A stretch of 64,000 nt of DNA, from contig JBBSYF010000001.1 in the NCBI GenBank assembly GCA_038045405.1, forward strand, positions 1,832 to 65,831. The letters are read 5' to 3'. Every line of letters starts with the position of its first letter. The stretch's first letter is position 1. This DNA is from Nanobdellota archaeon. Its GTDB lineage: Archaea > Nanobdellota > Nanobdellia > Pacearchaeales > GW2011-AR1. Both the position numbers and the translations under genes were made by a program. This document shows positions 955-19,655 of this stretch, one piece after another. The notes beneath the pieces were generated by a model. It saw only the letters and a list, made by a program, of their open reading frames with translations, was not told the DNA's origin and made no database searches.

Positions 955-1938
955 TTGATTATACATAATCGTGTTATGGGAGCGATTATTGGGTGGTTTA
1001 TGGGACTACCCTTCTCAATCATAGGAAATGATAAAATGAAACAAATACTGAAAGACCCTCTTGAAAGGGAAAGAGCAAGATTTTTATCAGTTTGCTCTGA
1101 TTTTGTAGACGAGTTTGTTCGTCAGTCTCCACAAGGAGGAGGTAGACCAAAATTCCCTCCTAATGACCTTTTGAAGGCATTGTTAATACAATCCTTACAT
1201 GGTGTGTCTTTCCATAGGATACAATCTGATTTACATCTTGCCAAAATGCTTGGGTTCATTAATTCTGTCCCAAAGAAAAGCACATTAAGTAAATATATGA
1301 ATGACCCGTCATTAACTGATAAACTTGAAAGATTAATCCAAACTTGTGCTTTCAGTTTTATGAATTCTGAAGATACTTTAATTGTAGACTCAACATGGTT
1401 TGCTACGAAAATGTATACTGGCGGAAGCAAGATAGTCCATGATAAGGCAAATGCCCCCTTGGATAAGGTAAGAAAAGTTCATATCGGTTTCTTACCAAAT
1501 AGCAAAATAATTGCTTATGCAAAAGCAACAATTGGAACAACACATGATTGTCCCCTTTTCAAAGATATCGTTTCTACGGTAGTGAACAACGGTTTCAATA
1601 TAGACAAATTACTTGCTGACGCTGGTTACTTGAGCAAAGCTAACTATGCTTTATGTGAATCTCTTGGTATTAAAGGAGTTTTTATTAATTTCAAATCAAA
1701 CATAACTGGAAAACATCCTAAAAGCAAAGCTTGGCGTAATTCCTTTAATCTTTACAAAAACGAACCTGAAGTCTGGCATGAAAATTATCGTTACAGAGTT
1801 TTAATCGAAGCATTGTATTCAGCAATTAAAAAGAAATTTCTTCCTTGGTTACGAACTAAAACCGACACAGCCAGAGATAACGAAAGTTTATTGAAAATGT
1901 TGGCTTATAACTTAACTATTCTAGGTAGATATTATTAA
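955..1938 (+). CDS. DDE transposase, IS5/IS4-like
   Basis: Candidate DDE residues are present in 'LIVDSTWF', 'LLADAGY' and 'YRYRVLIEALYSAIKKKF' (the Y..R..IE..F..IK signature of IS5-type enzymes). The track start is a non-ATG codon, and an ATG at 976 is possible. No terminal inverted repeats were found. Confidence 0.6.
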   Translation: MIIHNRVMGAIIGWFMGLPFSIIGNDKMKQILKDPLERERARFLSVCSDFVDEFVRQSPQGGGRPKFPPNDLLKALLIQSLHGVSFHRIQSDLHLAKMLGFINSVPKKSTLSKYMNDPSLTDKLERLIQTCAFSFMNSEDTLIVDSTWFATKMYTGGSKIVHDKANAPLDKVRKVHIGFLPNSKIIAYAKATIGTTHDCPLFKDIVSTVVNNGFNIDKLLADAGYLSKANYALCESLGIKGVFINFKSNITGKHPKSKAWRNSFNLYKNEPEVWHENYRYRVLIEALYSAIKKKFLPWLRTKTDTARDNESLLKMLAYNLTILGRYY

Positions 1939-4009: not shown

Positions 4010-4267
4010 TTATTTATCTCCCAATTTGTTCCTTAAATTACCAAGTCTTGCTCTGTAAATTTTAAGAGAAGCGTCATCTTTAATCTTAAGAATTTCTAAT
4101 TTTACTTCAAGTGCCCTTAAAAGACCTTTGTCTATCTCTTTTGTATGGTATCTCGCTCTTTCAATTTCGTTTTCTTTGATATCTTTCTCTATTTTTAGGA
4201 AGTGCTCTTCAATTTCCTTCTTTAGGCTTTCTACACCCTTTTTTGTTCTTTTAGTTCTTTTAGCCAT
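4010..4267 (-). CDS. Hypothetical coiled-coil protein (85 aa)
   Basis: The sequence is charged and helical. The gene sits downstream of the nucleotidyltransferase gene and overlaps it. Confidence 0.3.
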   Translation of the reverse strand: MAKRTKRTKKGVESLKKEIEEHFLKIEKDIKENEIERARYHTKEIDKGLLRALEVKLEILKIKDDASLKIYRARLGNLRNKLGDK

Positions 4268-4992
4268 TTTTCAGATAAGTCAATAAGGTTTTTTACTTCT
4301 TGTGGAAAAGTATCGTTAACCTCTTTTTCTTCTCTCTTTACTCTTATATAAGTGGCATAATTTTTTTCCCCACATATTTTAAAAAAATCTGACTTGAAAT
4401 AAGTTTTCTTCAAGGCTAAACATTTTATTAAGTATAGTTCTCTCAATCTTAAAACAAGAGAATAAACAACCCCATCAAGAACTTTTTCATCATAATCTGT
4501 ACAAAAATTTACAAAGTCTTTATTCATTTTAAGCACACCTCTTATCTCTCCTAATGTCTTTTTAGGGTTAAAGGACTTTTTATTCTGAATATATTTTTCA
4601 ATAAGTTCTTTGTTTACTATAACATCTATTTCATTTAACATGCTTGCATAATACAAATTAGTTAGAAAATTTTTTGAGAGGCTTTCTTCTGAACATAAAA
4701 ATATTTCATAGTTTTTGTAAGTGATAAATTTATTTATTTCACTTGTTATAACCAAGATATCAATATCACTCCCCCTGTCATAATCTCCTCTAGAATAGCT
4801 ACCAAAAATATATATACCTTTTACCTCTTCATTTAAATTTTTGGTAAATAAAAAATCTAAAACATCTTTGGCAATTTCTGCTTTATCTGGCAAAAAAAGA
4901 GTTACAACTACTTGCTTATTTAACCATTTTCTCGGCAATAAAACGCCTGCTGAAGTTCCTACTTCTCTAGCTTGTTTTACTATAGTTTCCAT
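4231..4992 (-). CDS. Nucleotidyltransferase-domain protein with an AbrB-like N-terminus
   Basis: The minimal NTase motif 'GSYSRGDYDRGSDIDILV' is present. The N-terminus 'GTSAGVLLPRKWLNKQVVV' is AbrB-like. The start was moved to the internal ATG (METIVK) instead of the track start at 5079. Confidence 0.55.
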   Translation of the reverse strand: METIVKQAREVGTSAGVLLPRKWLNKQVVVTLFLPDKAEIAKDVLDFLFTKNLNEEVKGIYIFGSYSRGDYDRGSDIDILVITSEINKFITYKNYEIFLCSEESLSKNFLTNLYYASMLNEIDVIVNKELIEKYIQNKKSFNPKKTLGEIRGVLKMNKDFVNFCTDYDEKVLDGVVYSLVLRLRELYLIKCLALKKTYFKSDFFKICGEKNYATYIRVKREEKEVNDTFPQEVKNLIDLSEKWLKELKEQKRV

Positions 4993-5099
4993 ATTATAAT
5001 ATATTATAATACCACTTATAAACTTTATCTTTATCATAAGTTGTAATAAAATATTCAAATAACAAACTTTATTAAACAAAATAATTCTCTCATTTTAAC

Positions 5100-5183
5100 G
5101 CGGGAGTGCCGGAGCGGTCAAACGGGCTGCGCTTAGGACGCAGTAGCTTAGTGCTTGCATAGGTTCGAATCCTATCTCCCGCA
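5100..5183 (+). tRNA. tRNA-Leu(UAG)
   Basis: The cloverleaf folds by hand. The acceptor is GCGGGAG/CTCCCGC, the anticodon arm is CTGCG-CTTAGGA-CGCAG, there is a long variable arm, and the T arm is ATAGG-TTCGAAT-CCTAT. Confidence 0.9.
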
Positions 5184-5214: not shown

Positions 5215-8200
5215 TTAAGCACATTCTGGGAATAATGCTTTTATTTCATCGTTAAAACCAAGAACATGTGATACATACTCGTTATTTCCTGTGCAACCCC
5301 ATCCATTATAGTTTCTTAATGCATACGTCCATCCAGAGTACTGTTTATTTGTACAGGTGAATGTTTTTGAATTGGAGTTGTATCCATTTATTAGAACATT
5401 GAGGCCGACGTTTATGTTAGTCTCAAAATCTGAAAGTTGTTTCTTACATTCTTCTAGGTTAGATGAAAGTCCATAAGTACCACAATGACCGATAAGTTGC
5501 CCAGCATTATTTTTGAACGCAATATTTATTTCCATGGTTCCTACACTCCCAAAGTTGTCACCATGAACGGTTTTGGTATAATCTCCTTCACAATACAAAG
5601 GATTTCCATTCTCTTGTGTCGGACTACATTGATGTATATCACTTTCCCTATATGCAACCTGTAAGGCCAAGCATTCAAAGTTTTTTGCTCCTGTTTGTTG
5701 TTTTACAACAGCATCGCTAAATTTAGCATCGCTTGTTTTCTTTGCTTCTGCTAGCTTAAGGATTTCTCTACCTAAAATTATTGAAGATAAATTCCTCTGA
5801 CAAGCAGGTAAATCTAAGCATTTCATTTTTCCATTTGTTTCTGTCGTTACTTCTTTTTGACAATCTTCAAATGTCGTGCATGTAAAGACAGTGGCGCCTG
5901 TCGTTGCAACTGCGGAGGTTGTAGCTGTTCCTGATGTTCCAGAGGTTCCTGAAGTCGATGATGTCCCGGATGCAGAATCAAGTCCAAAAAGTCTTTCGGC
6001 ACCCTGAATAGAATTTTTATCTCTCAAAATTGTTGCAATATTTTTGTTAAAAGAAGTTAAAGCAATCTGAGAATTTCCTATTGTGGTAATAGCATTTACA
6101 TCTGTCCACACATTTAGGTCACTTGAAATTTGCCAATTTTTTTTAGGAATGCTATACTTAAAGAATATTTTATCATCTTTTGTTAAAGTGAATATTTCTT
6201 CAGAGGAATATTCAACACTGTCTGTGACTAAAGACGGATTAGAAGAAAAATCCCCCCCGTCTCTTATATAAACTCTATTCATCAATTTAGAAAGACCTGC
6301 CGTGTAAGATTGACCATCTAGACTTTTAACGAATTCTTTATTTTTATCTGTTAATTGTGCAAACATCTGTTGATCAGTAAGCGTGCTTGAAGCAATAAAT
6401 GCACGTACTGTAGTTCTAAGACCGCCATCAGCATCTGAAGAAGAAACTGCTGTAGAAATCCATCTTTCTTTAGTCAATAGAGTGGATTTAGGATTTACAG
6501 ACCAATGCCAGTTACTTCCTGAAAAAGTGTAGTACAAATTAAATGCAATTGTGTCGTCTTTAAACTCAAAGATAGGATAGGTTATTTTTCCTATATTTTG
6601 CATTTCTTGTGCCTGAGGTGTTTGCGCTGGCACAACAAGAACGTCCCAATGATCCACTTCAAGGGCGTAAACCGCACCACTCACTTTGTTTCTGTATTGT
6701 TGCGCATTATCTCCACTTCTTTTTCCAACATCTTCAAAATTAGTTTTTATGTAAGCATCAAGTTGTGTGTTTAAACGTAAGTCAACTTTGTATCCGTTAG
6801 AATGACTGTACTGTCCTTCTGCATGATTCCCTTCCGTACCGCTTGTGATTGTTATTTCACAACCAGCGCATGATTGTTTAAGGTTCTCAATTTCTATTAA
6901 CGTTTGTTCTCGAACTCCTTGAAGGACAACTGTTCCATCTTTAACGCTGATTCCAGCACCAATCAAGGTTTTACGTGCAGTAGCTTCATTCACTGGAAGA
7001 TTGGATGGAGCTTCTGGAGTAGCAGGTTTTGCAGTTGTAGAAGTATCTGTATCTTTTGTTGGTCGTGTCGCTCGATATGCCTTCACGGCAATTGCTTTGT
7101 AAGCATTTGCCCTTAGAAGTGTTAGATAACCTTTTTTATCATTCTCTGAAACTCTGTTGTAAGCAGCAGCAATCAACCCTACTTTTTTAGAAAGATCTTT
7201 TTCTTTGTCGACAGAATCAACAAGATTAGTAAACTCGTCTGGAGTAAGTTCAGTACTTGAAAGAGCTTGATTAACATTCTTCACCGCATCATTTACTCCC
7301 TTCTCAGTTGAAACAGATCTTATCGTATCTTTAACGCTTTGTCCATCAAGCCAACATTTCATCTTTTCGTTTCCACAAATTCCAACTTCCGTCCATCTTT
7401 GATTTGCAGTTCCAACACCGGAGTCCGTTCCCGTTCCAGGATTAGTTGTTGCACAAACTCTCGTTATTCCTTGATTGTAAATTGCAGGATTAGCAAGTCC
7501 TTCTGCAGCAGATTGAATATTAGGAGTTAACAAATTCAATGCACTTGGAGTTCCTGAAATGCACGCTGCTTCAGTCTTTATGTTTGTTTGACTTGCTTGT
7601 GATGCAACTGCCTGTTCTGTAAGATAATTAATTCCAAACTCCGTTGTAACTTGTTTGAATCCACATTCTTCTTGATTGTTTACAACTATACAAAGTTCTT
7701 TGTATCCTGCAGGAGCGGGGAAGTCGGGAGTATCAGTTTTGAATTCTCCTCGTTTGATAAATCCATTTGCAACAATTCTTCTTTGGCCTGTATCTTCAAA
7801 GAAAGATCCTTCAGCTCCCTTAAGATAAACTTGATAGTAAGCTGGGAAATCTTTTCCTGCATATATGTGATAGAAAACTTTATACTGTGACATTGGGGGG
7901 TTCGTTGCAGTTGTTAATGGAATTTCATCAAATCTCCCATAGAATTGTGGAGGCACATCCGGAGTTGTTAAAGCATCTAATAAATTTCCTCCTTTTGGAG
8001 AAGCTATTGAAATCCAATTGTGACAAACTTCAGTCCCCACACCTTCCACTGTCCTTAACTTAAATGCATTGAATGAGTTTGATGCATAATACTGTGTGAA
8101 GAAATCAATAGAGTCTCCAGCTTTTTGCATTGCGTCCTGAACACCAAGATATTCTCCTCCTCCCCGAGTATTTTGTCCAAGAACAGAACCAATTATTTTA

Positions 8201-11200
8201 GGAGCAGCTATTTTTACAAGAGGAAGACTCTGTCTCCAGAAAAAGTCACACATATAAACAGAATTTATTTCATCACAAATTCCAACTTGCTGTCCAGTTT
8301 CTAAACTAGTTTGTAGGCATTGTTGGTAAGAGTTTGCAACACTCAAGTATCCAGAAAGTCCAGCATTAACTGCTGACAAACAAATAGGCACTTTAACATC
8401 GGGATAATTTGGGAGGCAAAGCATCAAGCCACCAATAACTCCCGATTGTATAACGTCTGCAACAGGGTAATCTCCCCCAAGGTCACATCTACTCGACGGA
8501 CAGATCACAGGGTCACAAACATTGAATAACAAGTTACAATCTGAGGGAGACATAAAATCTTGGCACTGAATACTTGGAATGTTTACTGCGGGAGAACCTA
8601 CCTGAATTTTATTTCTTGCTATGGTTACTTTAGTTATTCCAGGAGTACGCGCTCTTGCTTGTGATGCTTCTACAATTGCACTTTCTGCTCTACTGAAAAG
8701 ATCAGAAGACTCTCCAACACTAAGTCCGAATGCTTGTGTTTGTCCAGTTGCTCTTGGAACGAAATATTGACAGTCATCGTCCGAGGTACTCTGCTTTCTG
8801 TCTTCACCTATATTGCAAATGTAGAAGCTTGAAACTCTCACTGAATCATCATAAGGTTTTATTGCTCCCCCAACAGGAAGTATAGATTTAATTGCAGCAT
8901 ACCATCCATTCTTCAGATCAAATGGAACAGCTACAGGAAGTCCTTTGTAAGGTCCACTTTCAAAGTATGTAACTCTAGCGCTTCCGTCTGGATATGAATT
9001 CTGATATTTGTTGAGTACAAAAGAAGAGAACATTTCTTTTATCTTTTTAGATAATGGATTGTCTGCTGCTAAAAGATTTCCTGAAGAGCTATCATAAACG
9101 TTCTTTATTGTGTAAACATTCTGTCCTGCCAATTCCAATTCTAAAAGATAGTCAACATTGTTTAGATTAATTAACTTAACAGGTGTGCCTGCAGAAATTC
9201 CTAATGTATTTCCCTCTTTTGCAGTTGAGCCATAGTACACCCCTTCCTTTGAAAATTGGTCTTTGATAATTTCAGATAAAGGGTTGTCTACTTGTGCCTG
9301 CATTTTTTGTGAAAGAGCAGTTATAGCACTAATCTTTTCTTTGTTAGCATAAACACCCGTCAAAATCGAAGTTACTTGTGCTTTTGCAATCTCTCCAACT
9401 ATTCCCGGTTGATTCAGAAGTCCCGCATTTAATTCAAGGTCTCTTAGTTGAGTCGCAGAGATACTTTCTGAATTGAGGGAAGCAACAATTTCTGAAGCAG
9501 AAACATCTTTTCCCGAAACTTTGATATTAGGTATACCTGCAACATCTGTCTTAATCTTTTCTTTAGATGTCGTTAATTTTTGTTCTACATATTTTTTAGA
9601 ATCAACAGTCTGCTCGCCCGTAACATCTGTAGATATGACTGATTCTGTTGTAATCTCTTTATCATTCTTTGTTTGTTGGTCCATTGCCTGCGCATAAACA
9701 TTTACTGATGCGTCTATCTCATCAGAATTTCCAGTTAAACAAGAGTCAACACTCTTCCAAGGCCCCTTATTATTAATCTGAGCTCCTTTTTCAACAGCGT
9801 CCTTACATTTTTCAAACCATCCATTAGGCCCCCTCATGACTGTTTGTCTTGCAATTCCTTGCCCCCCAAGATTTGCTAAAAAGTTCTTTGCAGTAAGGAA
9901 AGCCCCAGTAGCAGCACAAACTTTTTTTTCCGTTTGTACTAATGTTCCAAGTTTTGAATTAATTCCTTCCCATTTTTCAATAGTTTTATTTAAGGATTCT
10001 ATTCTGCTTTTTGTTTTTTCCGGACTTAATTGTATTCCCCTCTTTTCAATTCCTATTTTGAAAGAGATATTTGCCTTGGATGTTTCATAATTTACATTTG
10101 GACTTATAGAAACACTTGCAAGTTTTTTCAAAGTTATTTTATTAACACTTATTTGGTACTTATTTGTCCCAACAATTGCATAAGAGTTCAGGTTTATCTT
10201 TACTGAATTAGAAGCCGTTCTCTCTTTTTGTACACCACTCACGTCAAATTCAGCATATTCATCTTCAAGTTTTGTCAAGATAATGAAGTCTGTAGCAGAA
10301 AGATACACTTTCTGGTATTGAGTGATTTGGTTAGGATAGTTTTCATATCCTGGTGCTACGTTTGTTACAGAAATGTCTGTGCTGTAGTCATCAAGGCTAG
10401 GTTCTTCTGCACCATCAAATTCTATTAAGTAAGTTTTCGAACCAATAGTAACCTCGCCTACTGAAACTTCCATGCTTGAAAGTTCCAAAGCATTCTTACA
10501 GATTGGGGGAATGTCTGAATTAGGATAACTCTCTGAAAATTCTTTGCAAAAGGTCGTAGCAGTTTTCTTTTGATTAGTTGTCCATGCTAATTCTATAATA
10601 TTTGTTAATGCTTTTTCTCCAAGCATTTGCATGTCTTCAGGAGGGTATGTTTCTGAAGCAAATTGATTAAGGATTGTTTCATAATCTTTCTTTGAACTCT
10701 CATAGTTCACTCTTGCTTTTACACCTTCAGGAGTAGTTGGAAATTCAGAATCAACAGCACTTGAAAAATCCATTATACCAACTTCTTTTCCGCCAACCGT
10801 CTCTTTCCCTTTTCCATAAAGAACCATATTGAAATTCCATCCTTTAAGGACGTTATTTGCACCTTTTTTAATGGTAGACATAATTTTATCAATCACTCCC
10901 CCATTCTCTTTAGTGGCAGTAGCAATCGTAGAAATTTCATTTTCAGTCAAGCTATTTTGTGTTGTTCTTCCTGCCAAAGGCAGATCAACAAGCATAGTAT
11001 AAGTAGACTCTAAAGTCTTGACGTTTTCTTCATTTCCTATAAATCCGATGTATACTCCTCTGTCCTTGTCGTCTTTGTCTTTGAATGTATAAAGTAAGTC
11101 TCCTATGCCAAATTCTTTTTCATTCTGCCCAGAAACTAAAAGGTTTAATTTAGGACTTACTGTCAAAGAGATAGTTGGAGACTTTGAATCCTGTTTGCAA

Positions 11201-12264
11201 CTAATATCCACTTTTTCAAAAAGGCCTCTTTTGTCTATTTTTTTAACGATACATTTATTCTCGAGGAATCTTTCTCCTTCCTTAATTTCAATAACATCTC
11301 CATTAACAACCAGTCTTGCCCTCGTGCCTGGATTCTCCAGCCCTAGAAGTGTAACCTTCAAATTTCCTAAACAATAATTAAATCCTGGTAAAGGAACTTG
11401 CATTGACTGCCCAATTTTTAAATTTGAAGAAGAAATTTTTATTTTTTCAACTGTTCTTCCTGTCCCATAACTGTTTCTATCAGAATAAATAGAAATGGTT
11501 GCACTATCGTCTCCAATTCCTTCTGCTCTCAAAAATCCTTTTCCCCTCCAGAATCCATACTGTTCTTGTCTTTCATTCCAATCAGAATCGCTCATCTCGG
11601 GAAGATAATATGAAGATGCTCCAACTCCAAATGCATTTTTAATATCATACATCAAAGTTGCCGTCAAGTTTCCTTGAACAAAATCAGGCATCGCACTTTC
11701 ATTTGGTTGTCTTCTTAAAACAATTACTGCGTAACCCATGTTATTTAAAATAGGCTCATTCATTTTTACATTCGAACCTAATAATGATGTTTCTAAAGCC
11801 GCTCTTGCGGGCGTATATGAAAGTCCTTGAACTTCCTTAGGGGCGTTGCCATTATACGAAAAAGAAATTCTGTTTATTGCTTTAACACCTATTAGGGGGT
11901 TTACCTGCATACCAATAATTGGGCAAAAAACTGGAGCGTTATTCTCCTCCAATAAGTCACTTCTTACAACGGAAGGTTGGCATCCATATGGGGAGATTTG
12001 AAGAACAAAATCCTGTCCCGTTTGGCACATCTCTTGATTAAATGTAAATAGAGAACTAGGCACCCCCCCTAATGGTGAGGCTAAAGGCGTATATGCAGTA
12101 CTTGTTCTAGAATATGAAGCTGCTGAAATAATGTTTAACAAGGACAAAACTAAGAATAAAACAGCAAAGGCTAAAACAAAACCTTTAACATAATTTGTAC
12201 TTACATTTTTTCCAATTAAAAGTTCACCTCTTTTTCTTCTCATCTCGTTTTCTCTTTTCATCAT
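5215..12264 (-). CDS. Giant secreted or surface protein (2349 aa) with C-terminal M15/LAS-like peptidase and SLT/lysozyme-like modules
   Basis: This is a single uninterrupted ORF. It has an N-terminal basic region plus hydrophobic helix, 'VKGFVLAFAVLFLVLSLL', and a Ser/Thr/Gly linker. 'ITSGTEGNHAEGQYSHSNGYKVDL...VDHWDV' resembles Zn DD/LD-peptidases. 'AYRES...GSVGTMEINI...ALRNYNGWG' resembles the lytic transglycosylase ES...GLMQ...YN motifs. Confidence 0.85.
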   Translation of the reverse strand: MMKRENEMRRKRGELLIGKNVSTNYVKGFVLAFAVLFLVLSLLNIISAASYSRTSTAYTPLASPLGGVPSSLFTFNQEMCQTGQDFVLQISPYGCQPSVVRSDLLEENNAPVFCPIIGMQVNPLIGVKAINRISFSYNGNAPKEVQGLSYTPARAALETSLLGSNVKMNEPILNNMGYAVIVLRRQPNESAMPDFVQGNLTATLMYDIKNAFGVGASSYYLPEMSDSDWNERQEQYGFWRGKGFLRAEGIGDDSATISIYSDRNSYGTGRTVEKIKISSSNLKIGQSMQVPLPGFNYCLGNLKVTLLGLENPGTRARLVVNGDVIEIKEGERFLENKCIVKKIDKRGLFEKVDISCKQDSKSPTISLTVSPKLNLLVSGQNEKEFGIGDLLYTFKDKDDKDRGVYIGFIGNEENVKTLESTYTMLVDLPLAGRTTQNSLTENEISTIATATKENGGVIDKIMSTIKKGANNVLKGWNFNMVLYGKGKETVGGKEVGIMDFSSAVDSEFPTTPEGVKARVNYESSKKDYETILNQFASETYPPEDMQMLGEKALTNIIELAWTTNQKKTATTFCKEFSESYPNSDIPPICKNALELSSMEVSVGEVTIGSKTYLIEFDGAEEPSLDDYSTDISVTNVAPGYENYPNQITQYQKVYLSATDFIILTKLEDEYAEFDVSGVQKERTASNSVKINLNSYAIVGTNKYQISVNKITLKKLASVSISPNVNYETSKANISFKIGIEKRGIQLSPEKTKSRIESLNKTIEKWEGINSKLGTLVQTEKKVCAATGAFLTAKNFLANLGGQGIARQTVMRGPNGWFEKCKDAVEKGAQINNKGPWKSVDSCLTGNSDEIDASVNVYAQAMDQQTKNDKEITTESVISTDVTGEQTVDSKKYVEQKLTTSKEKIKTDVAGIPNIKVSGKDVSASEIVASLNSESISATQLRDLELNAGLLNQPGIVGEIAKAQVTSILTGVYANKEKISAITALSQKMQAQVDNPLSEIIKDQFSKEGVYYGSTAKEGNTLGISAGTPVKLINLNNVDYLLELELAGQNVYTIKNVYDSSSGNLLAADNPLSKKIKEMFSSFVLNKYQNSYPDGSARVTYFESGPYKGLPVAVPFDLKNGWYAAIKSILPVGGAIKPYDDSVRVSSFYICNIGEDRKQSTSDDDCQYFVPRATGQTQAFGLSVGESSDLFSRAESAIVEASQARARTPGITKVTIARNKIQVGSPAVNIPSIQCQDFMSPSDCNLLFNVCDPVICPSSRCDLGGDYPVADVIQSGVIGGLMLCLPNYPDVKVPICLSAVNAGLSGYLSVANSYQQCLQTSLETGQQVGICDEINSVYMCDFFWRQSLPLVKIAAPKIIGSVLGQNTRGGGEYLGVQDAMQKAGDSIDFFTQYYASNSFNAFKLRTVEGVGTEVCHNWISIASPKGGNLLDALTTPDVPPQFYGRFDEIPLTTATNPPMSQYKVFYHIYAGKDFPAYYQVYLKGAEGSFFEDTGQRRIVANGFIKRGEFKTDTPDFPAPAGYKELCIVVNNQEECGFKQVTTEFGINYLTEQAVASQASQTNIKTEAACISGTPSALNLLTPNIQSAAEGLANPAIYNQGITRVCATTNPGTGTDSGVGTANQRWTEVGICGNEKMKCWLDGQSVKDTIRSVSTEKGVNDAVKNVNQALSSTELTPDEFTNLVDSVDKEKDLSKKVGLIAAAYNRVSENDKKGYLTLLRANAYKAIAVKAYRATRPTKDTDTSTTAKPATPEAPSNLPVNEATARKTLIGAGISVKDGTVVLQGVREQTLIEIENLKQSCAGCEITITSGTEGNHAEGQYSHSNGYKVDLRLNTQLDAYIKTNFEDVGKRSGDNAQQYRNKVSGAVYALEVDHWDVLVVPAQTPQAQEMQNIGKITYPIFEFKDDTIAFNLYYTFSGSNWHWSVNPKSTLLTKERWISTAVSSSDADGGLRTTVRAFIASSTLTDQQMFAQLTDKNKEFVKSLDGQSYTAGLSKLMNRVYIRDGGDFSSNPSLVTDSVEYSSEEIFTLTKDDKIFFKYSIPKKNWQISSDLNVWTDVNAITTIGNSQIALTSFNKNIATILRDKNSIQGAERLFGLDSASGTSSTSGTSGTSGTATTSAVATTGATVFTCTTFEDCQKEVTTETNGKMKCLDLPACQRNLSSIILGREILKLAEAKKTSDAKFSDAVVKQQTGAKNFECLALQVAYRESDIHQCSPTQENGNPLYCEGDYTKTVHGDNFGSVGTMEINIAFKNNAGQLIGHCGTYGLSSNLEECKKQLSDFETNINVGLNVLINGYNSNSKTFTCTNKQYSGWTYALRNYNGWGCTGNNEYVSHVLGFNDEIKALFPECA

Positions 12265-12282: not shown

Positions 12283-14163
12283 TCACTTAAAGTTTATATC
12301 CAAATTACTATCGCCAAATAAAACATAATTGTTTTGAAGTTTTTCAATTGTATCTGGCGTTGGAAGGCTCTTTGTATTTATCTCTAAAGTGTTTGAACTT
12401 GATAATTCAGATTCAAGTATATACTGACTCTGATTTCCTCCGCCAGCCAAAGCATTTGAAATAACTTGTGCAGGAACGGCTATATCAAAGCACTTCTTTT
12501 CTTCCAACCCTGCTATTCCCAAAACTCCTGCTCTTGGAACATTTATGCATTGCTGCGTTGTCGTTGCCCCTATAGTTATTGAGGTGTTCTTGTATACGTA
12601 AACTTGAACTTCATATTGCCCTTCTGCAAGTTGCACACTTCTCTGTTCAGGATAAGCAACTGTTTTAGAGAAATCTTGAGAAGTAAAGTAAATCATTGCT
12701 TCTCCATTATAGTTTACATTGTCTACTTTCAGTTGAATATTTTTATTGTAAAGTTTGTCCATAATAACATTAACGCTTCCTCCAGAAACTGTTGAAAACA
12801 AATACTTTATGTCTTTAAATCCTGAAGCTTTAGCAATAACATATCCATTCACACATTGAGGGAAGTTGTCGTCAAGCACTCCAGTCTCCGAAGTTGTACC
12901 AATAGCACAAGTATTTCCAAAACATTCGTAAGAAACATCTGCCTTCACCGCATGTCCATCCGTATCTGCTGTGCTTACCTGTACTTTTGTATTCTTGTAG
13001 GTACAGAATTCAGAATCACTTTCTGCAATAGCTGTTCCATTCAAAGAAACTCTTGGATTGTTATTTTGAAGAACAACAGCCATTGGGAACTGGAAGATTT
13101 CATCACCAGAAGAAACTTGAACTAAAACGGGATACTTCACACTGTAAACAAAGTGATATGGAACATAACAGAATCCTAGTATACCCAAGCCTTGTTGGTT
13201 CCCAACGGGATTTGAAACGAGCAGCGCTCCATCCGAAGGACTAACCTCTAAACTGCTTGTCCAGTTTCTTGAATTCAAAAATCTCACATCTTCCGTAACT
13301 CCGGGCACATTGACATTAAAGTAATCTTTGTCCCCACCACTATTCTTCAACGCAAGAGTGTTTACTTCTATAGCTTCTTGTAAGTCATCAAAGACTTTAT
13401 TTGCATTCCACACCATCGGAGAGCAAGTAACTTCAACCCCATCAACAGGAGCATAAAGTCTTAAAATATCAACAGAATAATTCTCCAAGAATAAACTTTT
13501 TTGCTCTTCATTATAAACTTTGATTGAGGAAGAATATAACTTTCCAAGATCAGAACTTACTATAACGTTATGTTTTTTCACAATGACGCTTTCATTTCCT
13601 ATGGCAATATTTAAGTTAAAGTTAAGTGTAACATCAACCTTATTGTTTTGGATGGAAACGCTTGAAGTAACCGGTTTTTCAAGATTAATTTCAAATCCTT
13701 GTTTGTAATAAGAATCAAAGTTACAGTTATCTACTTTTTCAGAAACAAACTGTCCAAGTTGTGTTTCCATAACTTCCTTCTTTGGAACTTGTTCTCGTTG
13801 AATGTTATTTCCAGAAACATAATACCAATAAGGGATTTGATTTCCCAGGAAATTAAGCTGTGATGAAAAAGGCATATATTTCGAACCAGGTTCAAACTCC
13901 GGAGTGTATATGTAACCCCCTTGACTTTCTAAAACACGAATTCCCGTTAAGGTATCTTGTTCAAGGCACGAAAGAAGAGTCGTATAAACTGGTTGAATAT
14001 CTGCCGGAATTTCAGGGTTTCCTAACGAGCCTCTCAAAAGAGCATAGGTTAACGCAGTTCCAACAACCAGCACTGCAATGATTATGAAAACGGTTACCTG
14101 CCCTTTCGTTTGGTTTGGTAAAAGCGAACGAGACCGAACTTGTGAGAGTCCTTTATTCTTCAT
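12283..14163 (-). CDS. Large secreted protein with a type IV pilin-like (class III) signal peptide
   Basis: The N-terminus is 'MKNKGLSQVRSRSLLPNQTKGQ/VTVFIIIAVLVVGTAL'. The start was taken at the internal ATG that overlaps the upstream stop (ATGA), whereas the track start at 14250 is TTG. Confidence 0.7.
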   Translation of the reverse strand: MKNKGLSQVRSRSLLPNQTKGQVTVFIIIAVLVVGTALTYALLRGSLGNPEIPADIQPVYTTLLSCLEQDTLTGIRVLESQGGYIYTPEFEPGSKYMPFSSQLNFLGNQIPYWYYVSGNNIQREQVPKKEVMETQLGQFVSEKVDNCNFDSYYKQGFEINLEKPVTSSVSIQNNKVDVTLNFNLNIAIGNESVIVKKHNVIVSSDLGKLYSSSIKVYNEEQKSLFLENYSVDILRLYAPVDGVEVTCSPMVWNANKVFDDLQEAIEVNTLALKNSGGDKDYFNVNVPGVTEDVRFLNSRNWTSSLEVSPSDGALLVSNPVGNQQGLGILGFCYVPYHFVYSVKYPVLVQVSSGDEIFQFPMAVVLQNNNPRVSLNGTAIAESDSEFCTYKNTKVQVSTADTDGHAVKADVSYECFGNTCAIGTTSETGVLDDNFPQCVNGYVIAKASGFKDIKYLFSTVSGGSVNVIMDKLYNKNIQLKVDNVNYNGEAMIYFTSQDFSKTVAYPEQRSVQLAEGQYEVQVYVYKNTSITIGATTTQQCINVPRAGVLGIAGLEEKKCFDIAVPAQVISNALAGGGNQSQYILESELSSSNTLEINTKSLPTPDTIEKLQNNYVLFGDSNLDINFK

Positions 14164-14288
14164 TTTTCTCTCCTTTCTAATTTTTTCTTTATCAATTCCA
14201 AAATTTCCGTATTGATATCTTTCTCTATACTTTTTTTGAATTTTTTCCAAAGCTCTTCATCTTCCACTAGAAGTAAATATTTTTTCAT
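14160..14288 (-). CDS. Small ribbon-helix-helix-like protein (42 aa, below the track cutoff)
   Basis: Hand translation gives MKKYLLLVEDEELWKKFKKSIEKDINTEILELIKKKLERREK, which has a beta-strand plus two helices in an RHH-like pattern. Its stop overlaps the ATG of the next gene. Confidence 0.35.
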   Translation of the reverse strand: MKKYLLLVEDEELWKKFKKSIEKDINTEILELIKKKLERREK

Positions 14289-14700: not shown

Positions 14701-14807
14701 ACATTATATTTAAATATTTGGTGAAATTCCTAAAAGGACCAGGTCCCGTTGCCTATTGTTCAGAACAGAATAGAAAGATTAATAAATTAGTGGAAATTAA
14801 CTTAATA

Positions 14808-15857
14808 ATGAAATCAAGGGAAAGAAGAATAAAGCTAAAAAAGGGTGTTCAAAGAGAGATAATCCTTGAAGCTTCCAAAAGAGAAGGAAATATGAAGAAG
14901 ATGGCAGCAAAAGTAAAAGTCCCATACTCTACAATGAAGAATTACTCGGCAGAATACAGATTCTTACCGGAGAATTTATTTAATAATTTGTTAAAATTGT
15001 CCAACAAATCTACAGAAAATATTGATGCTTCTTACTTAGACTATAAATGGGGGCAACGCTTAGGAGGAAAATTGGGAATAAGAGCACTTGAAAAGAAATA
15101 TCCAGGTAAGATTAAGAAATGGAGAAGTTTAGCCATGAAAAAAGCACTAAGGACTAATCCACGTCTAAAAAAGATAAACTTACCCAAGATTAGTGAAGAG
15201 TTAGCAGAGTTTATAGGAATCTATTTAGGGGATGGTACAATGACAACAAATCAGATTAGAATAGTTGGCGATGCTAGGTACGATGTATTCTACTTCGAAT
15301 ACATATCTAAAATGGTTTATCATTTATTCGGGTTAAAAACTTCTTTAATAAAACATAAGGATACAAACACCTTTCTAGTTGTTGTTTATTCAAAGGCTTT
15401 ATGTGAGTTTATGAATCAAAATTTTAACTTGAAACCAGGAGATAAGATAAGAAATCAAAGCGGTATCCCTCAAAAGATTTTTCGGAATATAAATTTCGCA
15501 AAGGCTTGCTTAAGAGGGCTTATAGACACTGACGGATCGGTTTCAAGAAGGGGGAGAAACGGTAGTCAGTTTTGCATCCAATTCACTTCACACAATAAAA
15601 AACTTTTAGGTCAAGTGAAAAAAATAAACAAAAGACTTAAAATTTTTACATTTGGGGATGAAACAGGAACAGGTACGAATAAGTGGGAGAATATAGTCAA
15701 ATATTTTCAAATTGTTGGTAGCTCAAATCCAAAACACATAGTACGTTTTCTTTTAAGAAAAGAAGGTAGAGTTATTTATAGAGATGAATTGTCTTTTTAC
15801 TTCAAACAGGAAAGGTTTAAAGATTTAAATTTACCATTCAATTTAGGGGGCGTATAA
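14808..15857 (+). CDS. Free-standing double-motif LAGLIDADG homing endonuclease-like protein
   Basis: The two motifs are 'LAEFIGIYLGDGT' and 'CLRGLIDTDGS'. It is a paralog of the ORF at 32148-33059. The ATG at 14808 aligns with the paralog N-terminus, whereas the track start at 14718 is TTG. The last 10 nt overlap tRNA-Val. Confidence 0.8.
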   Translation: MKSRERRIKLKKGVQREIILEASKREGNMKKMAAKVKVPYSTMKNYSAEYRFLPENLFNNLLKLSNKSTENIDASYLDYKWGQRLGGKLGIRALEKKYPGKIKKWRSLAMKKALRTNPRLKKINLPKISEELAEFIGIYLGDGTMTTNQIRIVGDARYDVFYFEYISKMVYHLFGLKTSLIKHKDTNTFLVVVYSKALCEFMNQNFNLKPGDKIRNQSGIPQKIFRNINFAKACLRGLIDTDGSVSRRGRNGSQFCIQFTSHNKKLLGQVKKINKRLKIFTFGDETGTGTNKWENIVKYFQIVGSSNPKHIVRFLLRKEGRVIYRDELSFYFKQERFKDLNLPFNLGGV

Positions 15858-15918
15858 GCTAGCGGTAAACTGTGTCCTTGACGTGGACAATTCCCAAGTT
15901 CAACTCTTGGTACGCCCA
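15848..15918 (+). tRNA. tRNA-Val(GAC)
   Basis: The acceptor is GGGCGTA/TACGCCC and the anticodon arm is TGTCC-TTGACGT-GGACA. The T arm is CCAAG-TTCAACT-CTTGG. The D arm AGCT-AGCGGTA-AACT has one C-A mismatch. Confidence 0.75.
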
Positions 15919-17442: not shown

Positions 17443-18462
17443 ATGAAAAGAGATTCTACGGACAAGCTGAGAAAGTCTATCAACAAAATAGACGAAGAGA
17501 TGTTAAATCTTTTATCAAAAAGACAACATCTGGCCAAAGAAGTAGGAACACTTAAGAAAAGTTTGAACATCCCCATATTTGATAAAGGAAGAGAGGAAGA
17601 AATTCTAAACAAAATTTCTAAAAGAGCGAAGAAATTAGAGTTAAAAGAAGAGTTTGTCGAAGAAATCTTTAGTGCAATATTCAAAAATTCAAGAGCTTCA
17701 CAACAAAGGCAGTTTAAAAATTTAAGTTGTAAAATAAAAAGGGTTGGACTTATAGGCTTTGGAAGGTTCGGGAAATTAATTGTTAAACATCTTTCTGGCG
17801 ATTTTAAATTTTACGTGTATGACAAAGCGAATAAGAAAGAAGAAATTAGAAAGAGTTATGCTACCCCCTCATCCCTTGAGGAAGTCTGTGAAAAAGAAAT
17901 AGTGATACTCGCAGTTCCGATCTCTAGAATGGAACGCACTCTAATAAAAATTAAGAATTTACTGAAAAGAAATGTGCTTGTTGTTGATGTATGTTCTGTA
18001 AAAGAATATCCTGTAAAATTGATGAAGAATATTCTGCCAAAGAATGTTCAAATACTGGCAACACACCCTCTTTTTGGACCAGATACAGCTTCTGATTCTC
18101 TCGAAGGAAGAAAAATTGCATTATGCAAGGTTAGAGTTTCAAGCAATTTGCACTCTCATATCAAAAGGTTTCTGGAAAGCAAAGGTTTGTTAGTTATAGA
18201 AACAACTCCAGACAAACATGATAGAGAAATTGCCAAGTCACTTGTTTTGACACACCTTATAGGAAGGGCTTTGATTGACATGAAAGCTTCTAACGTCAAT
18301 ATAGACACAAGAGGTTACAGGGATTTAATGAGAATACTTAACACGGTAAAAAATGACGTATGGCAACTTTTTGAAGATATGAATCACTATAACAAGTATT
18401 CAAAAAAAGTAAGAGGAAAGTTTGTTAAATCGATGAGTAGAATAAACAGAAAACTAAACTAA
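17443..18462 (+). CDS. Bifunctional chorismate mutase / prephenate dehydrogenase-like protein
   Basis: An N-terminal AroQ-type helix ('LRKSINKIDEEMLNLLSKRQHLAKEVG') is followed by a Rossmann motif ('VGLIGFGRFGKLI') and 'THPLFGP'. Confidence 0.75.
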   Translation: MKRDSTDKLRKSINKIDEEMLNLLSKRQHLAKEVGTLKKSLNIPIFDKGREEEILNKISKRAKKLELKEEFVEEIFSAIFKNSRASQQRQFKNLSCKIKRVGLIGFGRFGKLIVKHLSGDFKFYVYDKANKKEEIRKSYATPSSLEEVCEKEIVILAVPISRMERTLIKIKNLLKRNVLVVDVCSVKEYPVKLMKNILPKNVQILATHPLFGPDTASDSLEGRKIALCKVRVSSNLHSHIKRFLESKGLLVIETTPDKHDREIAKSLVLTHLIGRALIDMKASNVNIDTRGYRDLMRILNTVKNDVWQLFEDMNHYNKYSKKVRGKFVKSMSRINRKLN

Positions 18463-18578
18463 AACAAAATTTAAATACCCAAACATTTTGGTTCAAACAT
18501 GATATTTCAGCTACAAAGTTATTTCTGGTACTTTTAGGTAGCTGATGCTTTTAGCTCTAAATTCTTTTTAAATCTAAA

Positions 18579-19655
18579 ATGACTTCAAAAAATAATCACT
18601 CATGTTTAGTAGTAGATCAACGTATTCTTGAATATAAAACTCTAATTAGTCCTTACGATCTGAAAAAAGACTTGCCTCAAACAAGCAAAACAAAAGAAAC
18701 AACTATTTATGGAAGAAAGAGTATAGAAGACATCTTAGACGGGAAGGATTCTAAGATTACAATAATTGTCGGACCCTGTTCAATCCACAGTATTGAATCT
18801 GCTAAAGAGTATGCAACAAGGCTCAAGGAGATATCAGATAAAATCTCTGATAAGTTTTTGGTTGTGATGAGAACTTACTTTGAAAAGCCAAGAACAAGCG
18901 TCGGATGGAAAGGTTTCATCTATGATCCTCATCTTGATGGTTCAAATAACATAAATTGGGGCTTACACCTTTCTCGTGAATTTCTCTTACACAATGCAAG
19001 AATCGGATTACCTTCTGCTACAGAATATTTAGAAACGTTTACTCCGCAGTATAACTCGGATCTCATTTCTTGGTCGGCAATAGGAGCGAGAACAGTTGAA
19101 TCTCCACAGCATAGGCAGTTAGCTTCGGGACTTTCAATGCCAGTAGGGTTCAAGAATAATACAGAAGGGAATGTTAAAGTTGCAGTAAACGCTATGCTGT
19201 CTGCAAGAGAAGAGCACTCGTTTTTAGGAATAAATGAGCAAGGAACTCCGTGTGTTGTAATTACTTCTGGAAATCCATACACCCATATTGTCCTTAGAGG
19301 AAGCGAAACAAAAACAAATTACGACTATGAAAATGTTCGTGAAGCACAAAGTCAGCTTGAAGCTCACAAGCTTTCTCCAAAAATTATGATAGACTGTAAT
19401 CATGGAAACTCTAGCAAAGATTACAGAAATCAAGCAAGAGTCTTTGAAGATATACTCAACCAAATCAAAGAAGGAAATAAAAACATAATAGGAGTAATGA
19501 TAGAGTCTAACTTAAATCCGGGAAATCAGCAAATACCTCATAATCTCAACGGTTTTGATGCGAAAAAGTTAGCGTACGGAGTTTCAGTAACGGATTCATG
19601 TCTTGGATGGGAAGAGACTGAGGCTCTTCTGTTAAATGCCCACAGAAGTCTTTGA
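18579..19655 (+). CDS. 3-deoxy-7-phosphoheptulonate (DAHP) synthase, class I (AroG/F/H-like)
   Basis: 'IIVGPCSIH', 'MRTYFEKPRTSVGWKG', 'SWSAIGARTVESPQHRQLASG' and 'KIMIDCNHGNS' match the bacterial class I-alpha pattern. Confidence 0.85.
   Translation: MTSKNNHSCLVVDQRILEYKTLISPYDLKKDLPQTSKTKETTIYGRKSIEDILDGKDSKITIIVGPCSIHSIESAKEYATRLKEISDKISDKFLVVMRTYFEKPRTSVGWKGFIYDPHLDGSNNINWGLHLSREFLLHNARIGLPSATEYLETFTPQYNSDLISWSAIGARTVESPQHRQLASGLSMPVGFKNNTEGNVKVAVNAMLSAREEHSFLGINEQGTPCVVITSGNPYTHIVLRGSETKTNYDYENVREAQSQLEAHKLSPKIMIDCNHGNSSKDYRNQARVFEDILNQIKEGNKNIIGVMIESNLNPGNQQIPHNLNGFDAKKLAYGVSVTDSCLGWEETEALLLNAHRSL

Follow-up and report, generated by a model that had tools for sequence, protein, structure and literature searches.

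Giant extracellular proteins with murein-like transglycosylase domains, grouped as fam00969, are known from Pacearchaeota and Woesearchaeota and have been proposed to bind and degrade the walls of bacteria (Castelle et al. 2021, PMC8204110), with earlier sightings in Rinke 2013 and Castelle 2015 (noted in PMC8204110). The same kind of protein has also been called GH23, and predation on bacteria has been argued from it (Vigneron et al. 2022, PMC9723730). Here, we analyze such a protein, encoded in a stretch of 64,000 nucleotides from contig JBBSYF010000001.1 of a Nanobdellota archaeon (the whole of this stretch is called the window below). The protein agrees with the published giants in lineage, in size class (up to about 3000 residues), in its predicted extracellular location, in its C-terminal transglycosylase-like domain and in the bacterial wall proposed as its target. 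However, both published accounts mention the transglycosylase domain alone, whereas the protein described here adds a second module, which resembles the LAS (Hedgehog/DD-peptidase, clan MD) fold. Our reading, to which we assign a probability of roughly 0.62, is that a member of a known family of giant surface proteins has acquired a LAS-like peptidase module, and that its two enzymatic heads together open bacterial peptidoglycan.

For the second module, the closest solved structure is the MT3 domain of VldE (Spr1875) from Streptococcus pneumoniae, which has been shown experimentally to be a zinc L,D-endopeptidase of the LAS fold and of clan MD, with H301, D308 and H375 as its ligands (PMC11667670). 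The same domain is also found as motif 3 of the tape measure protein of mycobacteriophage TM4. As for the combination of a glycan-cutting and a peptide-cutting enzyme, TraG of pIP501 and PrgK of pCF10 unite SLT with CHAP hydrolases in Gram-positive conjugation systems (PMC12102498). What they have in common with the proteins studied here is an SLT-type glycan cutter and a peptide cutter in a single contact apparatus, as in the bacterial relatives P0037 and P0140, where both are carried on a pilin of a type IV secretion system (T4SS). The proteins studied here differ in that the peptidase is LAS-like instead of CHAP, and in that the archaeal carrier is a giant surface protein outside any T4SS context.

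A giant archaeal protein with two conserved domain families

The protein is encoded by a single, intact open reading frame (ORF) of 2349 residues on the minus strand (5215..12264, from the ORF list and its translation), and the positions of all its parts given below refer to the same strand. The window can be taken as archaeal because it contains genes for TFIIB and ribosomal protein S3Ae and because the closest genomes are metagenome-assembled genomes (MAGs) of Pacearchaeota and Woesearchaeota. Judging by its sequence, the 2349-residue product is a giant secreted protein of the Pacearchaeota/Woesearchaeota type from a groundwater Pacearchaeota-like (DPANN) archaeon, in agreement with an earlier note on this DNA, which had spoken of an archaeal giant. 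Its features, namely a length above 1500 residues, the Pacearchaeota/Woesearchaeota lineage, a transglycosylase-like domain and a predicted extracellular location, are those of the fam00969 type. Homologues with 33-52% identity are present at 10 loci in DPANN MAGs, several of them near full-length and aligning up to residues 1-2349. What is more, the identical protein is found on 10 contigs from several independent groundwater metagenomes, among them the 0.1 µm fraction of Hainich well H52, and such exact recurrence argues that the giant ORF is no assembly artefact. The sole strongly hydrophobic segment of the protein, an N-terminal signal or anchor at residues 28-49 (12118..12183), was located by a hydropathy scan as part of a segment at residues 21-52. 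With only this one hydrophobic segment at its N-terminus, the protein is probably secreted or N-terminally anchored, the remainder being predicted to be extracellular. It contains 44 cysteines, with clusters at residues 1200-1300 and in the C-terminal domain.

Direct searches with this sequence returned little. Namely, Pfam contained nothing relevant for the full-length ORF or for three pieces of its C-terminal part, phmmer against PDB sequences found nothing for both pieces and the whole ORF, and a first homology search, word-indexed and run with the 661 residues at the C-terminus, recovered no relatives, probably because the Ser/Thr/Gly-rich linkers saturated its candidate list. A query freed of linkers recovered one relative only, the protein P0001 of a Ktedonobacteraceae bacterium. 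When 1.84 billion representative proteins were scanned exhaustively by HMMER, the last 661 residues serving as the query, 1106 matches were obtained at E<=1e-3, of which 484 reached E<=1e-10, with the best E-values going down to 1e-83. These matches map locally to two independent domain families, at residues of about 1764-1880 and about 2126-2349, and a third, weaker family of matches spans the stretch between them. On the strength of this conservation, we regard both stretches as genuine conserved domains, with chance motifs excluded. The part between them consists of a middle domain (residues about 1887-2096, 5977..6606), which has no assigned function and no Pfam match and for which local phmmer gave matches to about 20 further giants, with E from 1e-5 to 1e-15, and of a Ser/Thr/Gly-rich low-complexity linker, read from the translation (residues 2097-2125, 5890..5976).

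The C-terminal domain (residues 2126-2349, 5218..5889) was delimited by alignment A3 and by profile and fold searches. At the level of its family, it can be assigned to a divergent GH23/SLT-type, goose-lysozyme-like group. The peptide 'AYRESDIHQC...GSVGTMEINI...YALRNYNGWG', in which the earlier note had recognized the motifs of SLT-type lytic transglycosylases, is present at residues 2203-2324. The note had placed this SLT-like region at 5215-5820, and the SLT-like stretch is indeed found there; the domain, however, extends to 5889, about 70 bases upstream of 5820. In an alignment of 56 relatives, motif I, read here as Y-R-E-S-D (5638..5652) with the catalytic pair Glu2207-Ser2208, has Glu in all 56 sequences and Ser in 53. 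Motif III (AYNxG), read as Y-N-G-W (5299..5310), has all four residues in 56/56 and is followed by a conserved Y-V-E. In motif II (GLMQ), the relatives have Gly in 56, Met in 55 and Gln in 53 of the 56 sequences, and the window copy reads G-T-M-E-I-N (5524..5541), with Gln replaced by Glu2245. Next to it comes a 30-residue, Cys-containing insert (5431..5520), present in 5/56 relatives and modelled with a lower predicted local distance difference test (pLDDT) score. The family is rich in cysteine, C73, C88, C100 and C223 (numbering of A3) being invariant and C10 nearly so.

The SLT-type resemblance proposed in the earlier note is supported by the relatives. In particular, Pfam SLT is matched by 8 of 34 relatives (best E 7.5e-6) and Lysozyme_like by 2, and the family profile run against PDB sequences found lysozymes only, goose-type lysozyme being the best (E 0.016), with G-V-M-Q-I-N of the family aligned to G-L-M-Q-V-D of goose lysozyme. 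Compared by hhalign, the profile gave P 0.005 with Escherichia coli EmtA, covering motifs II-III, and only P 0.15 with the canonical SLT of P0140. NCBIfam and PHROGs held no match for the domain of the window. The AlphaFold2 model (pLDDT 86.7) places the catalytic Glu at the C-terminal end of a helix (71-83), after which comes a small sheet. The best PDB folds reported by Foldseek were goose lysozymes (E 0.39-1.8), GH124 (template-modelling score, TM, 0.42) and MltF, none of them significant. In comparison with Slt70 and EmtA/MltE, which are family 1 lytic transglycosylases, and with goose-type lysozyme (GH23), the family shares the E-S, G-L-M-Q and A-Y-N-x-G motifs and the Glu at the end of a helix, whereas the window domain differs in being Cys-rich, in having Y-N-G-W followed by Y-V-E, in its G-T-M-E and in the 30-residue insert, the overall structural similarity being low (TM 0.31-0.42). 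An Asn occupies the position at which goose lysozyme has its second carboxylate, which suggests a lytic-transglycosylase mechanism rather than hydrolysis. The extra carboxylate of Glu2245 beside the active site might change the type of reaction.

The LAS-like module and its relatives

The other conserved domain, a LAS-like (Hedgehog/DD-peptidase-fold) module and putative zinc peptidoglycan peptidase, occupies residues 1764-1878 (6631..6975), as delimited by alignment A2, the model and fold searches. It is preceded by a Thr/Pro/Ser-rich linker seen in the translation (residues 1736-1759, 6988..7059). The peptide 'CEITITSGTEGNHAEGQYSHSNGYKVDLRL...YALEVDHWDVLV', likened in the earlier note to the zinc site of M15/LAS peptidases, lies within these residues. 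Two alignments were used, A2 with 53 sequences and A5 with 96 full-length sequences. They display the pattern T-x-G-T-E-x-G-H-x-x-G-x-x-S-H-x-x-G-Y-K-x-D ... E-x-x-H-W-D, in which H, G, D, E, W and D (W1873 and D1874 included) are invariant in both alignments, the position of H1872 is at least 90% conserved, and T, T, H, G, K, R, D and H are nearly invariant. In the window copy, the first conserved block reads S-H-S-N-G-Y-K-V-D (6781..6807), with H, G and D invariant in the 53 and in the 96 sequences and with H1821 and D1828 as the proposed zinc ligands (H-x6-D); the nearly invariant H1814 precedes it (6823-6825). The second block, E-V-D-H-W-D (6643..6660), belongs to the final beta-strand of the model and contains E1869 as the proposed general base and H1872 as the proposed third zinc ligand. 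The H-x6-D arrangement of zinc ligands known from M15 is thus present in the family, and its spacing is that of T5 endolysin, MepK, VldE and Sonic hedgehog (Shh). Namely, the H-x-x-G-x-x-x-D of the family is spaced identically to 'HITGDAID' of T5 endolysin, 'HTKGQAMD' of MepK and 'HYEGRAVD' of Shh.

Profile libraries do not place this family. The Pfam M15 models (PF01427, PF02557 VanY, PF05951 M15_2, PF08291 M15_3 and PF13539 M15_4) did not match the window domain at E<=10, and neither M15 nor any other explanatory Pfam family was found for the 53 relatives at E<=1; MepK and T5 endolysin, run as positive controls, matched their own Pfam families. No match to the window domain was obtained in NCBIfam and PHROGs, nor to the family profile among PDB sequences at E<=10. 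The earlier note had considered that its idea would fail if profile searches gave no hit to M15/LAS families, and this is formally what happened for M15. Its broader proposal of an M15/LAS resemblance has stood at the level of fold and motif, through the structural matches and the alignment register described next, and not at the level of M15 profiles. The family comprises at least 100 representatives of clusters at 50% identity, and has no Pfam, NCBIfam or PHROG model. In searches of viral sequences, tblastn of the domain against 50,697 phage genomes found nothing, and no relatives were found among IMG/VR viral contigs.

The AlphaFold2 model of the module is a confident one (pLDDT 95.2, pTM 0.87), and its elements follow each other in the order helix, strand (ITITS), His-containing loop, strand (KVDLR, with the Asp), helix, strands and a last strand (HWDVL, with the His). 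As we read it, M15 and Hedgehog domains are built in this same order. The top Foldseek match in BFVD had E 3.2e-5, probability 1.00, TM 0.56, a root-mean-square deviation of 3.4 A over 118 columns and 24% identity, and the third match was a phage 'LT_GEWL domain containing protein'; among the PDB fold matches, MepA was found at rank 47. Reference sequences for profile comparison were T5 endolysin, MepK, VldE (by way of the TM4 tape measure protein) and the N-terminal domain of Shh. In hhalign, A2 gave P 0.0085 over 65 columns with a 17-sequence profile of the VldE family, P 0.038 with Shh and P 0.48, in correct register, with T5 endolysin; with MepK, the alignment was meaningless. H1821 and D1828 came in register with H301 and D308 of VldE, H141 and D148 of Shh and H66 and D73 of T5 endolysin. 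Taken together, the support for similarity to the LAS fold is moderate, the PDB matches being weak. We conclude from the model that the module is probably a new family inside the LAS (Hedgehog/DD-peptidase, clan MD) fold, outside every defined M15 family.

With VldE, the module shares a small alpha/beta domain of about 115-125 residues, the H-x6-D, a C-terminal His motif and a long linker to a wall-binding domain, the identity being 22% over 65 aligned columns. However, VldE ends in H-x-D-H-V-H with a zinc-zipper loop and has an SGYR-type Arg, whereas the family ends in E-x-x-H-W-D and has T-x-G-T-E at the place of the latter; moreover, PF26571 is annotated on relatives of VldE and not on the relative P0001. 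As for M15 peptidases (VanX, VanY, the T5 and Ply500 endolysins and MepK), the family has in common with the E-x-x-H of VanX a Glu three residues before the last His. It is distinguished from M15 and Hedgehog domains by falling below every profile threshold, by its lack of the SGYR Arg and by the invariant Trp and Asp after the last His.

The bacterial members of the family give the best indication of what the module does. Those that are named come from Patescibacteria and Paceibacterota. Of the 96 carriers other than giants (alignment A5), 59 begin with an N-terminal T4SS_pilin domain (VirB2-like, PF18895), two also contain a canonical SLT and one a PG_binding_1 domain; P0037 and P0140 consist of T4SS pilin, canonical SLT and LAS-like module. 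At least one gene for a pilin with the module sits in a T4SS gene cluster. The gene of P0029 lies two genes downstream of genes for TraC-like and VirB4-like ATPases, and a Mur ligase is encoded as well in this Paceibacterota genome. P0001 has two PG_binding_1 domains, followed by a C-terminal stretch of 95 residues that is 42% identical to the module of the window, and on Streptomyces plasmids a 553-residue 'GH25 family lysozyme' has the module at its very C-terminal end, the module being found also in 'peptidoglycan-binding proteins'. Every informative fusion partner is a peptidoglycan-binding or peptidoglycan-cleaving domain or an apparatus that crosses the envelope. It is mainly because of these partners that we assign a wall-peptidase function to the module. 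Most probably, it represents a new zinc peptidoglycan peptidase family, which a few DPANN giants have captured.

Several individual bacterial carriers may be mentioned here in their own right. A VirB2-like pilin with a C-terminal module is encoded at 8001-8831 of locus L013 (Ca. Paceibacterota, GCA_017991375.1). The 353-residue bacterial protein P0035 contains two tandem copies, at residues 53-132 and 163-249. A plasmid of Streptomyces sp. NBC_00376 (locus L019, 1199-2860) and 41 other plasmid records carry the module, which is itself unannotated in them; the records with the module belong to 40 Streptomyces, one Deinococcus and one Nonomuraea.

Among the archaeal giants, for which we compared 45 collected proteins of at least 1000 residues, the SLT-like domain is widespread (39 of 45), and the LAS-like module is present in four, at differing positions. 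The giants of loci L001, L002, L003 and L005 have the same SLT-like domain as the window protein. Both modules together were found only in the window protein and in its near-orthologue P0002 (74% identity). In a neighbour-joining tree built on 110 columns, the three archaeal lineages of the module are not mutual nearest neighbours, each standing beside different bacterial sequences. This scatter would fit repeated capture from Patescibacteria, and it is suggestive only, since the tree is short and unlabelled. In the giant ORF of L008 (archaeon GW2011_AR19), the module is situated mid-protein, at residues 669-789, and the SLT-like domain is missing. This mid-protein placement suggests that the module behaves as a mobile cassette.

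A further arrangement is seen in P0015 (Pacearchaeota, MCX6749728.1), whose residues 2018-2624 comprise the LAS-like module, a pretoxin-HINT domain and a tail of 300 residues. The module (residues 2018-2162) is directly followed by pretoxin-HINT (PF07591, E 3.9e-12, residues 2186-2318), and the tail has no PDB match, no similarity to the SLT-like family and no detectable relatives. By its domain composition, this layout is a polymorphic-toxin-like cassette in a DPANN archaeon; the Pfam scan found no pretoxin-HINT domain in the window protein. The order of a Hedge-like domain and Hint also recalls Hedgehog proteins. Finally, locus L006 (contig CAYRAD010000425.1, 2560 bases) consists wholly of a fragment of a giant homologue and is binned in a MAG of 'uncultured Vicingus sp.'. 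We take Vicingus to be a genus of Bacteroidota, and L006 is probably a mis-binned archaeal contig.

Proposed action on bacterial walls and alternative explanations

In the reading that we prefer, the LAS-like module of about 115 residues would have been acquired by the window protein, by P0002 and by two other giants, in different arrangements. The distal end of the cell-anchored giant would display two enzymatic heads, set apart by the long, flexible Thr/Pro/Ser-rich and Ser/Thr/Gly-rich linkers and the middle domain. In the first head, zinc would be held by H1821, D1828 and H1872 and water activated by E1869, with H1814 assisting. This active site is proposed by analogy with VldE, T5 endolysin, VanX and Shh. 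The peptidase head would cut a bond of the stem peptide or of the cross-link of murein, for which several bonds come into question, as the enzymes of clan MD cut L-Ala-D-Glu, D-Ala-D-Ala, bonds between meso-diaminopimelic acid residues (mDAP-mDAP) and others. The C-terminal head would cleave the glycan between N-acetylmuramic acid (MurNAc) and N-acetylglucosamine (GlcNAc) by means of Glu2207, probably as a lytic transglycosylase. Together, the heads may open the peptidoglycan of a contacted bacterial cell, be it a host, prey or a food source. We infer the zinc binding, the catalysis, the choice of bond and the bacterial target from the domain boundaries, families, conservation, predicted folds, fusions and contexts described above. 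A bacterial wall is a reasonable target, and has already been published as such for the transglycosylase part.

That said, a number of observations weigh against this reading. The module was recognized by none of the sequence-profile libraries searched (Pfam, NCBIfam, PHROGs and PDB). The top BFVD match is a predicted structure of a Microviridae protein, and its link to Hedgehog domains rests on the automatic name 'Sonic hedgehog protein'. The top PDB fold match, the VldE MT3 domain (9flk), is weak (E 0.058, probability 0.75, TM 0.40-0.44), and the probabilities reported by hhalign in the comparisons of the module are low, at most 4.7%. The Arg of the 'SGYR' motif of M15 is absent, the family having T-x-G-T-E(-G) instead, and E-x-x-H-W-D, while present, was never aligned by any program to the C-terminal motif of the references. 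On the side of the SLT-like domain, the Glu in motif II is found only in the window copy, P0002 and P0003 among the 56 relatives, the 30-residue insert is a further departure, and the window's own copy reaches no Pfam threshold, that of SLT included. The profile check suggested in the earlier note has given SLT matches for 8 of 34 relatives of this domain and none for the window copy itself.

Would the same observations be explained better otherwise? The two modules may serve scavenging, digesting the walls of free or dead bacteria for amino acids and amino sugars with no attack on living cells. The peptidoglycan of dead bacteria has been proposed as a source of amino acids in a study of chimney Pacearchaeota (PMC11537232), and sequence cannot tell attack from scavenging. 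However, the modules belong to a cell-bound protein of 2349 residues and not to a small secreted enzyme, the bacterial homologues are placed on T4SS pilins in T4SS clusters, i.e. on contact-dependent machinery, and the sister giant P0015 pairs the module with a pretoxin-HINT cassette typical of contact-dependent antagonism, so that we consider scavenging unlikely. The concern that the LAS-like module is not an enzyme at all is of a different kind. Namely, it could be a non-catalytic, metal-binding domain for adhesion or recognition that binds wall peptides or another ligand, much as the N-terminal domain of Hedgehog acts mainly as a ligand, leaving the SLT-like domain as the only catalytic one. 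The Sonic hedgehog annotation of the best fold match, the failure of M15 profiles, the missing Arg of 'SGYR', which stabilizes the substrate, and the location of most bacterial copies on pilins, a natural place for an adhesin, would all agree with this. What makes it improbable in our view is that the conserved residues are exactly those of clan MD catalysis, invariant in at least 96 sequences. In VanX, E181 and H184 likewise have the Glu three residues before the last His. In addition, the module is joined to further wall-cutting enzymes (SLT, GH25), an arrangement like that of two-domain lysins, and VldE, its closest solved relative in structure, is an active endopeptidase.

The wall in question might also be archaeal, either the pseudomurein of a methanogen host, an alternative raised in the earlier note, or the archaeon's own wall. 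Cultivated DPANN archaea are reported to have archaeal hosts. Lytic transglycosylases, however, depend on a beta-1,4 bond and on the hydroxyl at C6 of MurNAc, whereas pseudomurein contains beta-1,3-linked N-acetyltalosaminuronic acid and is resistant to lysozymes, and the endoisopeptidases known to cut pseudomurein are cysteine enzymes with no relation to the fold of either head. Pseudomurein is thus a chemically unlikely substrate for a lytic transglycosylase. What is more, all members of the LAS-like family from outside the archaea come from murein-containing Patescibacteria, Streptomyces, Ktedonobacteraceae and Deinococcus, where they are fused to murein-binding or murein-cleaving domains. 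Given both the transglycosylase chemistry and this bacterial distribution of homologues, we regard an archaeal envelope, pseudomurein included, as a very improbable target. One could lastly claim that a fast-evolving, low-complexity giant resembles enzymes by chance and contains no enzymatic domain, as the empty outcome of the direct Pfam, PDB and first word-indexed searches with the window sequence would allow. Against this stand hundreds of homologues with E-values down to 1e-83, sharp motifs, models with pLDDT of 95 and 87 and relatives that match Pfam SLT. Chance resemblance is refuted by these homologue families, conserved motifs and confident models, and its probability is practically negligible.

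Genomic surroundings and implications

Directly upstream of the giant gene lies an ORF of 655 residues (12283..14250, minus strand), which has no Pfam or NCBIfam match. The sequence 'KGQVTVFIIIAVLVV' at its N-terminus is similar to a class III signal (type IV pilin-like). In 9 of the 10 related loci, an ORF of similar size (615-639 residues) likewise sits directly upstream of the giant gene, in most cases with an N-terminus of the KRGQVT... type. The two genes of the window probably form an operon, and the 655-residue protein may be a structural partner of the giant. On the 3' side, a tRNA-Leu gene (5100-5183) lies on the plus strand, opposite to the giant, whose stop codon is about 30 bases away. 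It is followed on its other side by a nucleotidyltransferase gene (4231-5079). An insertion sequence with a transposase ORF (DDE_Tnp_1 and DUF772, 955-1938, plus strand) is separated from the 3' end of the giant by about 3 kb. A scan for promoters and terminators near the 3' end of the giant gene was uninformative; it looks for bacterial promoters of the sigma-70 type, and archaeal ones fall outside its scope.

Other genes of the window are of a more general interest. An ORF of 379 residues (14718-15918, plus strand) contains a LAGLIDADG_3 homing-endonuclease domain, and at its end shares a few bases with a tRNA-Val gene (15848-15918). Genes for a chorismate mutase/prephenate dehydrogenase fusion and for DAHP synthase are adjacent to each other at 17443-19655 on the plus strand. 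Such genes of aromatic amino-acid biosynthesis are notable in a DPANN-type genome, which one would otherwise expect to be reduced.

What is new in this study is the second module, together with an unannotated LAS-like family that links T4SS pilins of Patescibacteria, bacterial lysins and a few DPANN giants; the idea of a transglycosylase, by contrast, was already known. Most T4SS clusters of Patescibacteria have no VirB1 wall hydrolase (PMC12102498), and the LAS-like module could fill this role in them. One can go further and suppose that the module of 115 residues is an unrecognised family of zinc peptidoglycan peptidases that Patescibacteria display on VirB2-like T4SS pilins, which could explain the clusters without VirB1, and that DPANN archaea captured it several times by inter-domain transfer. 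Both radiations of ultra-small episymbionts would then share a tool for breaching walls, and at least some Pacearchaeota would parasitise bacteria rather than archaea. We put this wider scenario forward as a tentative one, which we think has rather less than an even chance of being correct.

Giant transglycosylase proteins are among the few clues that some Pacearchaeota and Woesearchaeota target bacteria. The presence in some of them of a peptidase-type module, from a family otherwise dominated by T4SS pilins of Patescibacteria and by bacterial lysins, lends further weight to the bacterial-wall hypothesis and is a sign of gene flow between CPR bacteria (candidate phyla radiation) and DPANN archaea in groundwater. 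The LAS-like family is relevant also to the biology of T4SS in Patescibacteria and to the cell-wall hydrolases of Streptomyces. Finally, the bond specificity of the module could narrow down the type of wall that the host of this archaeon possesses.

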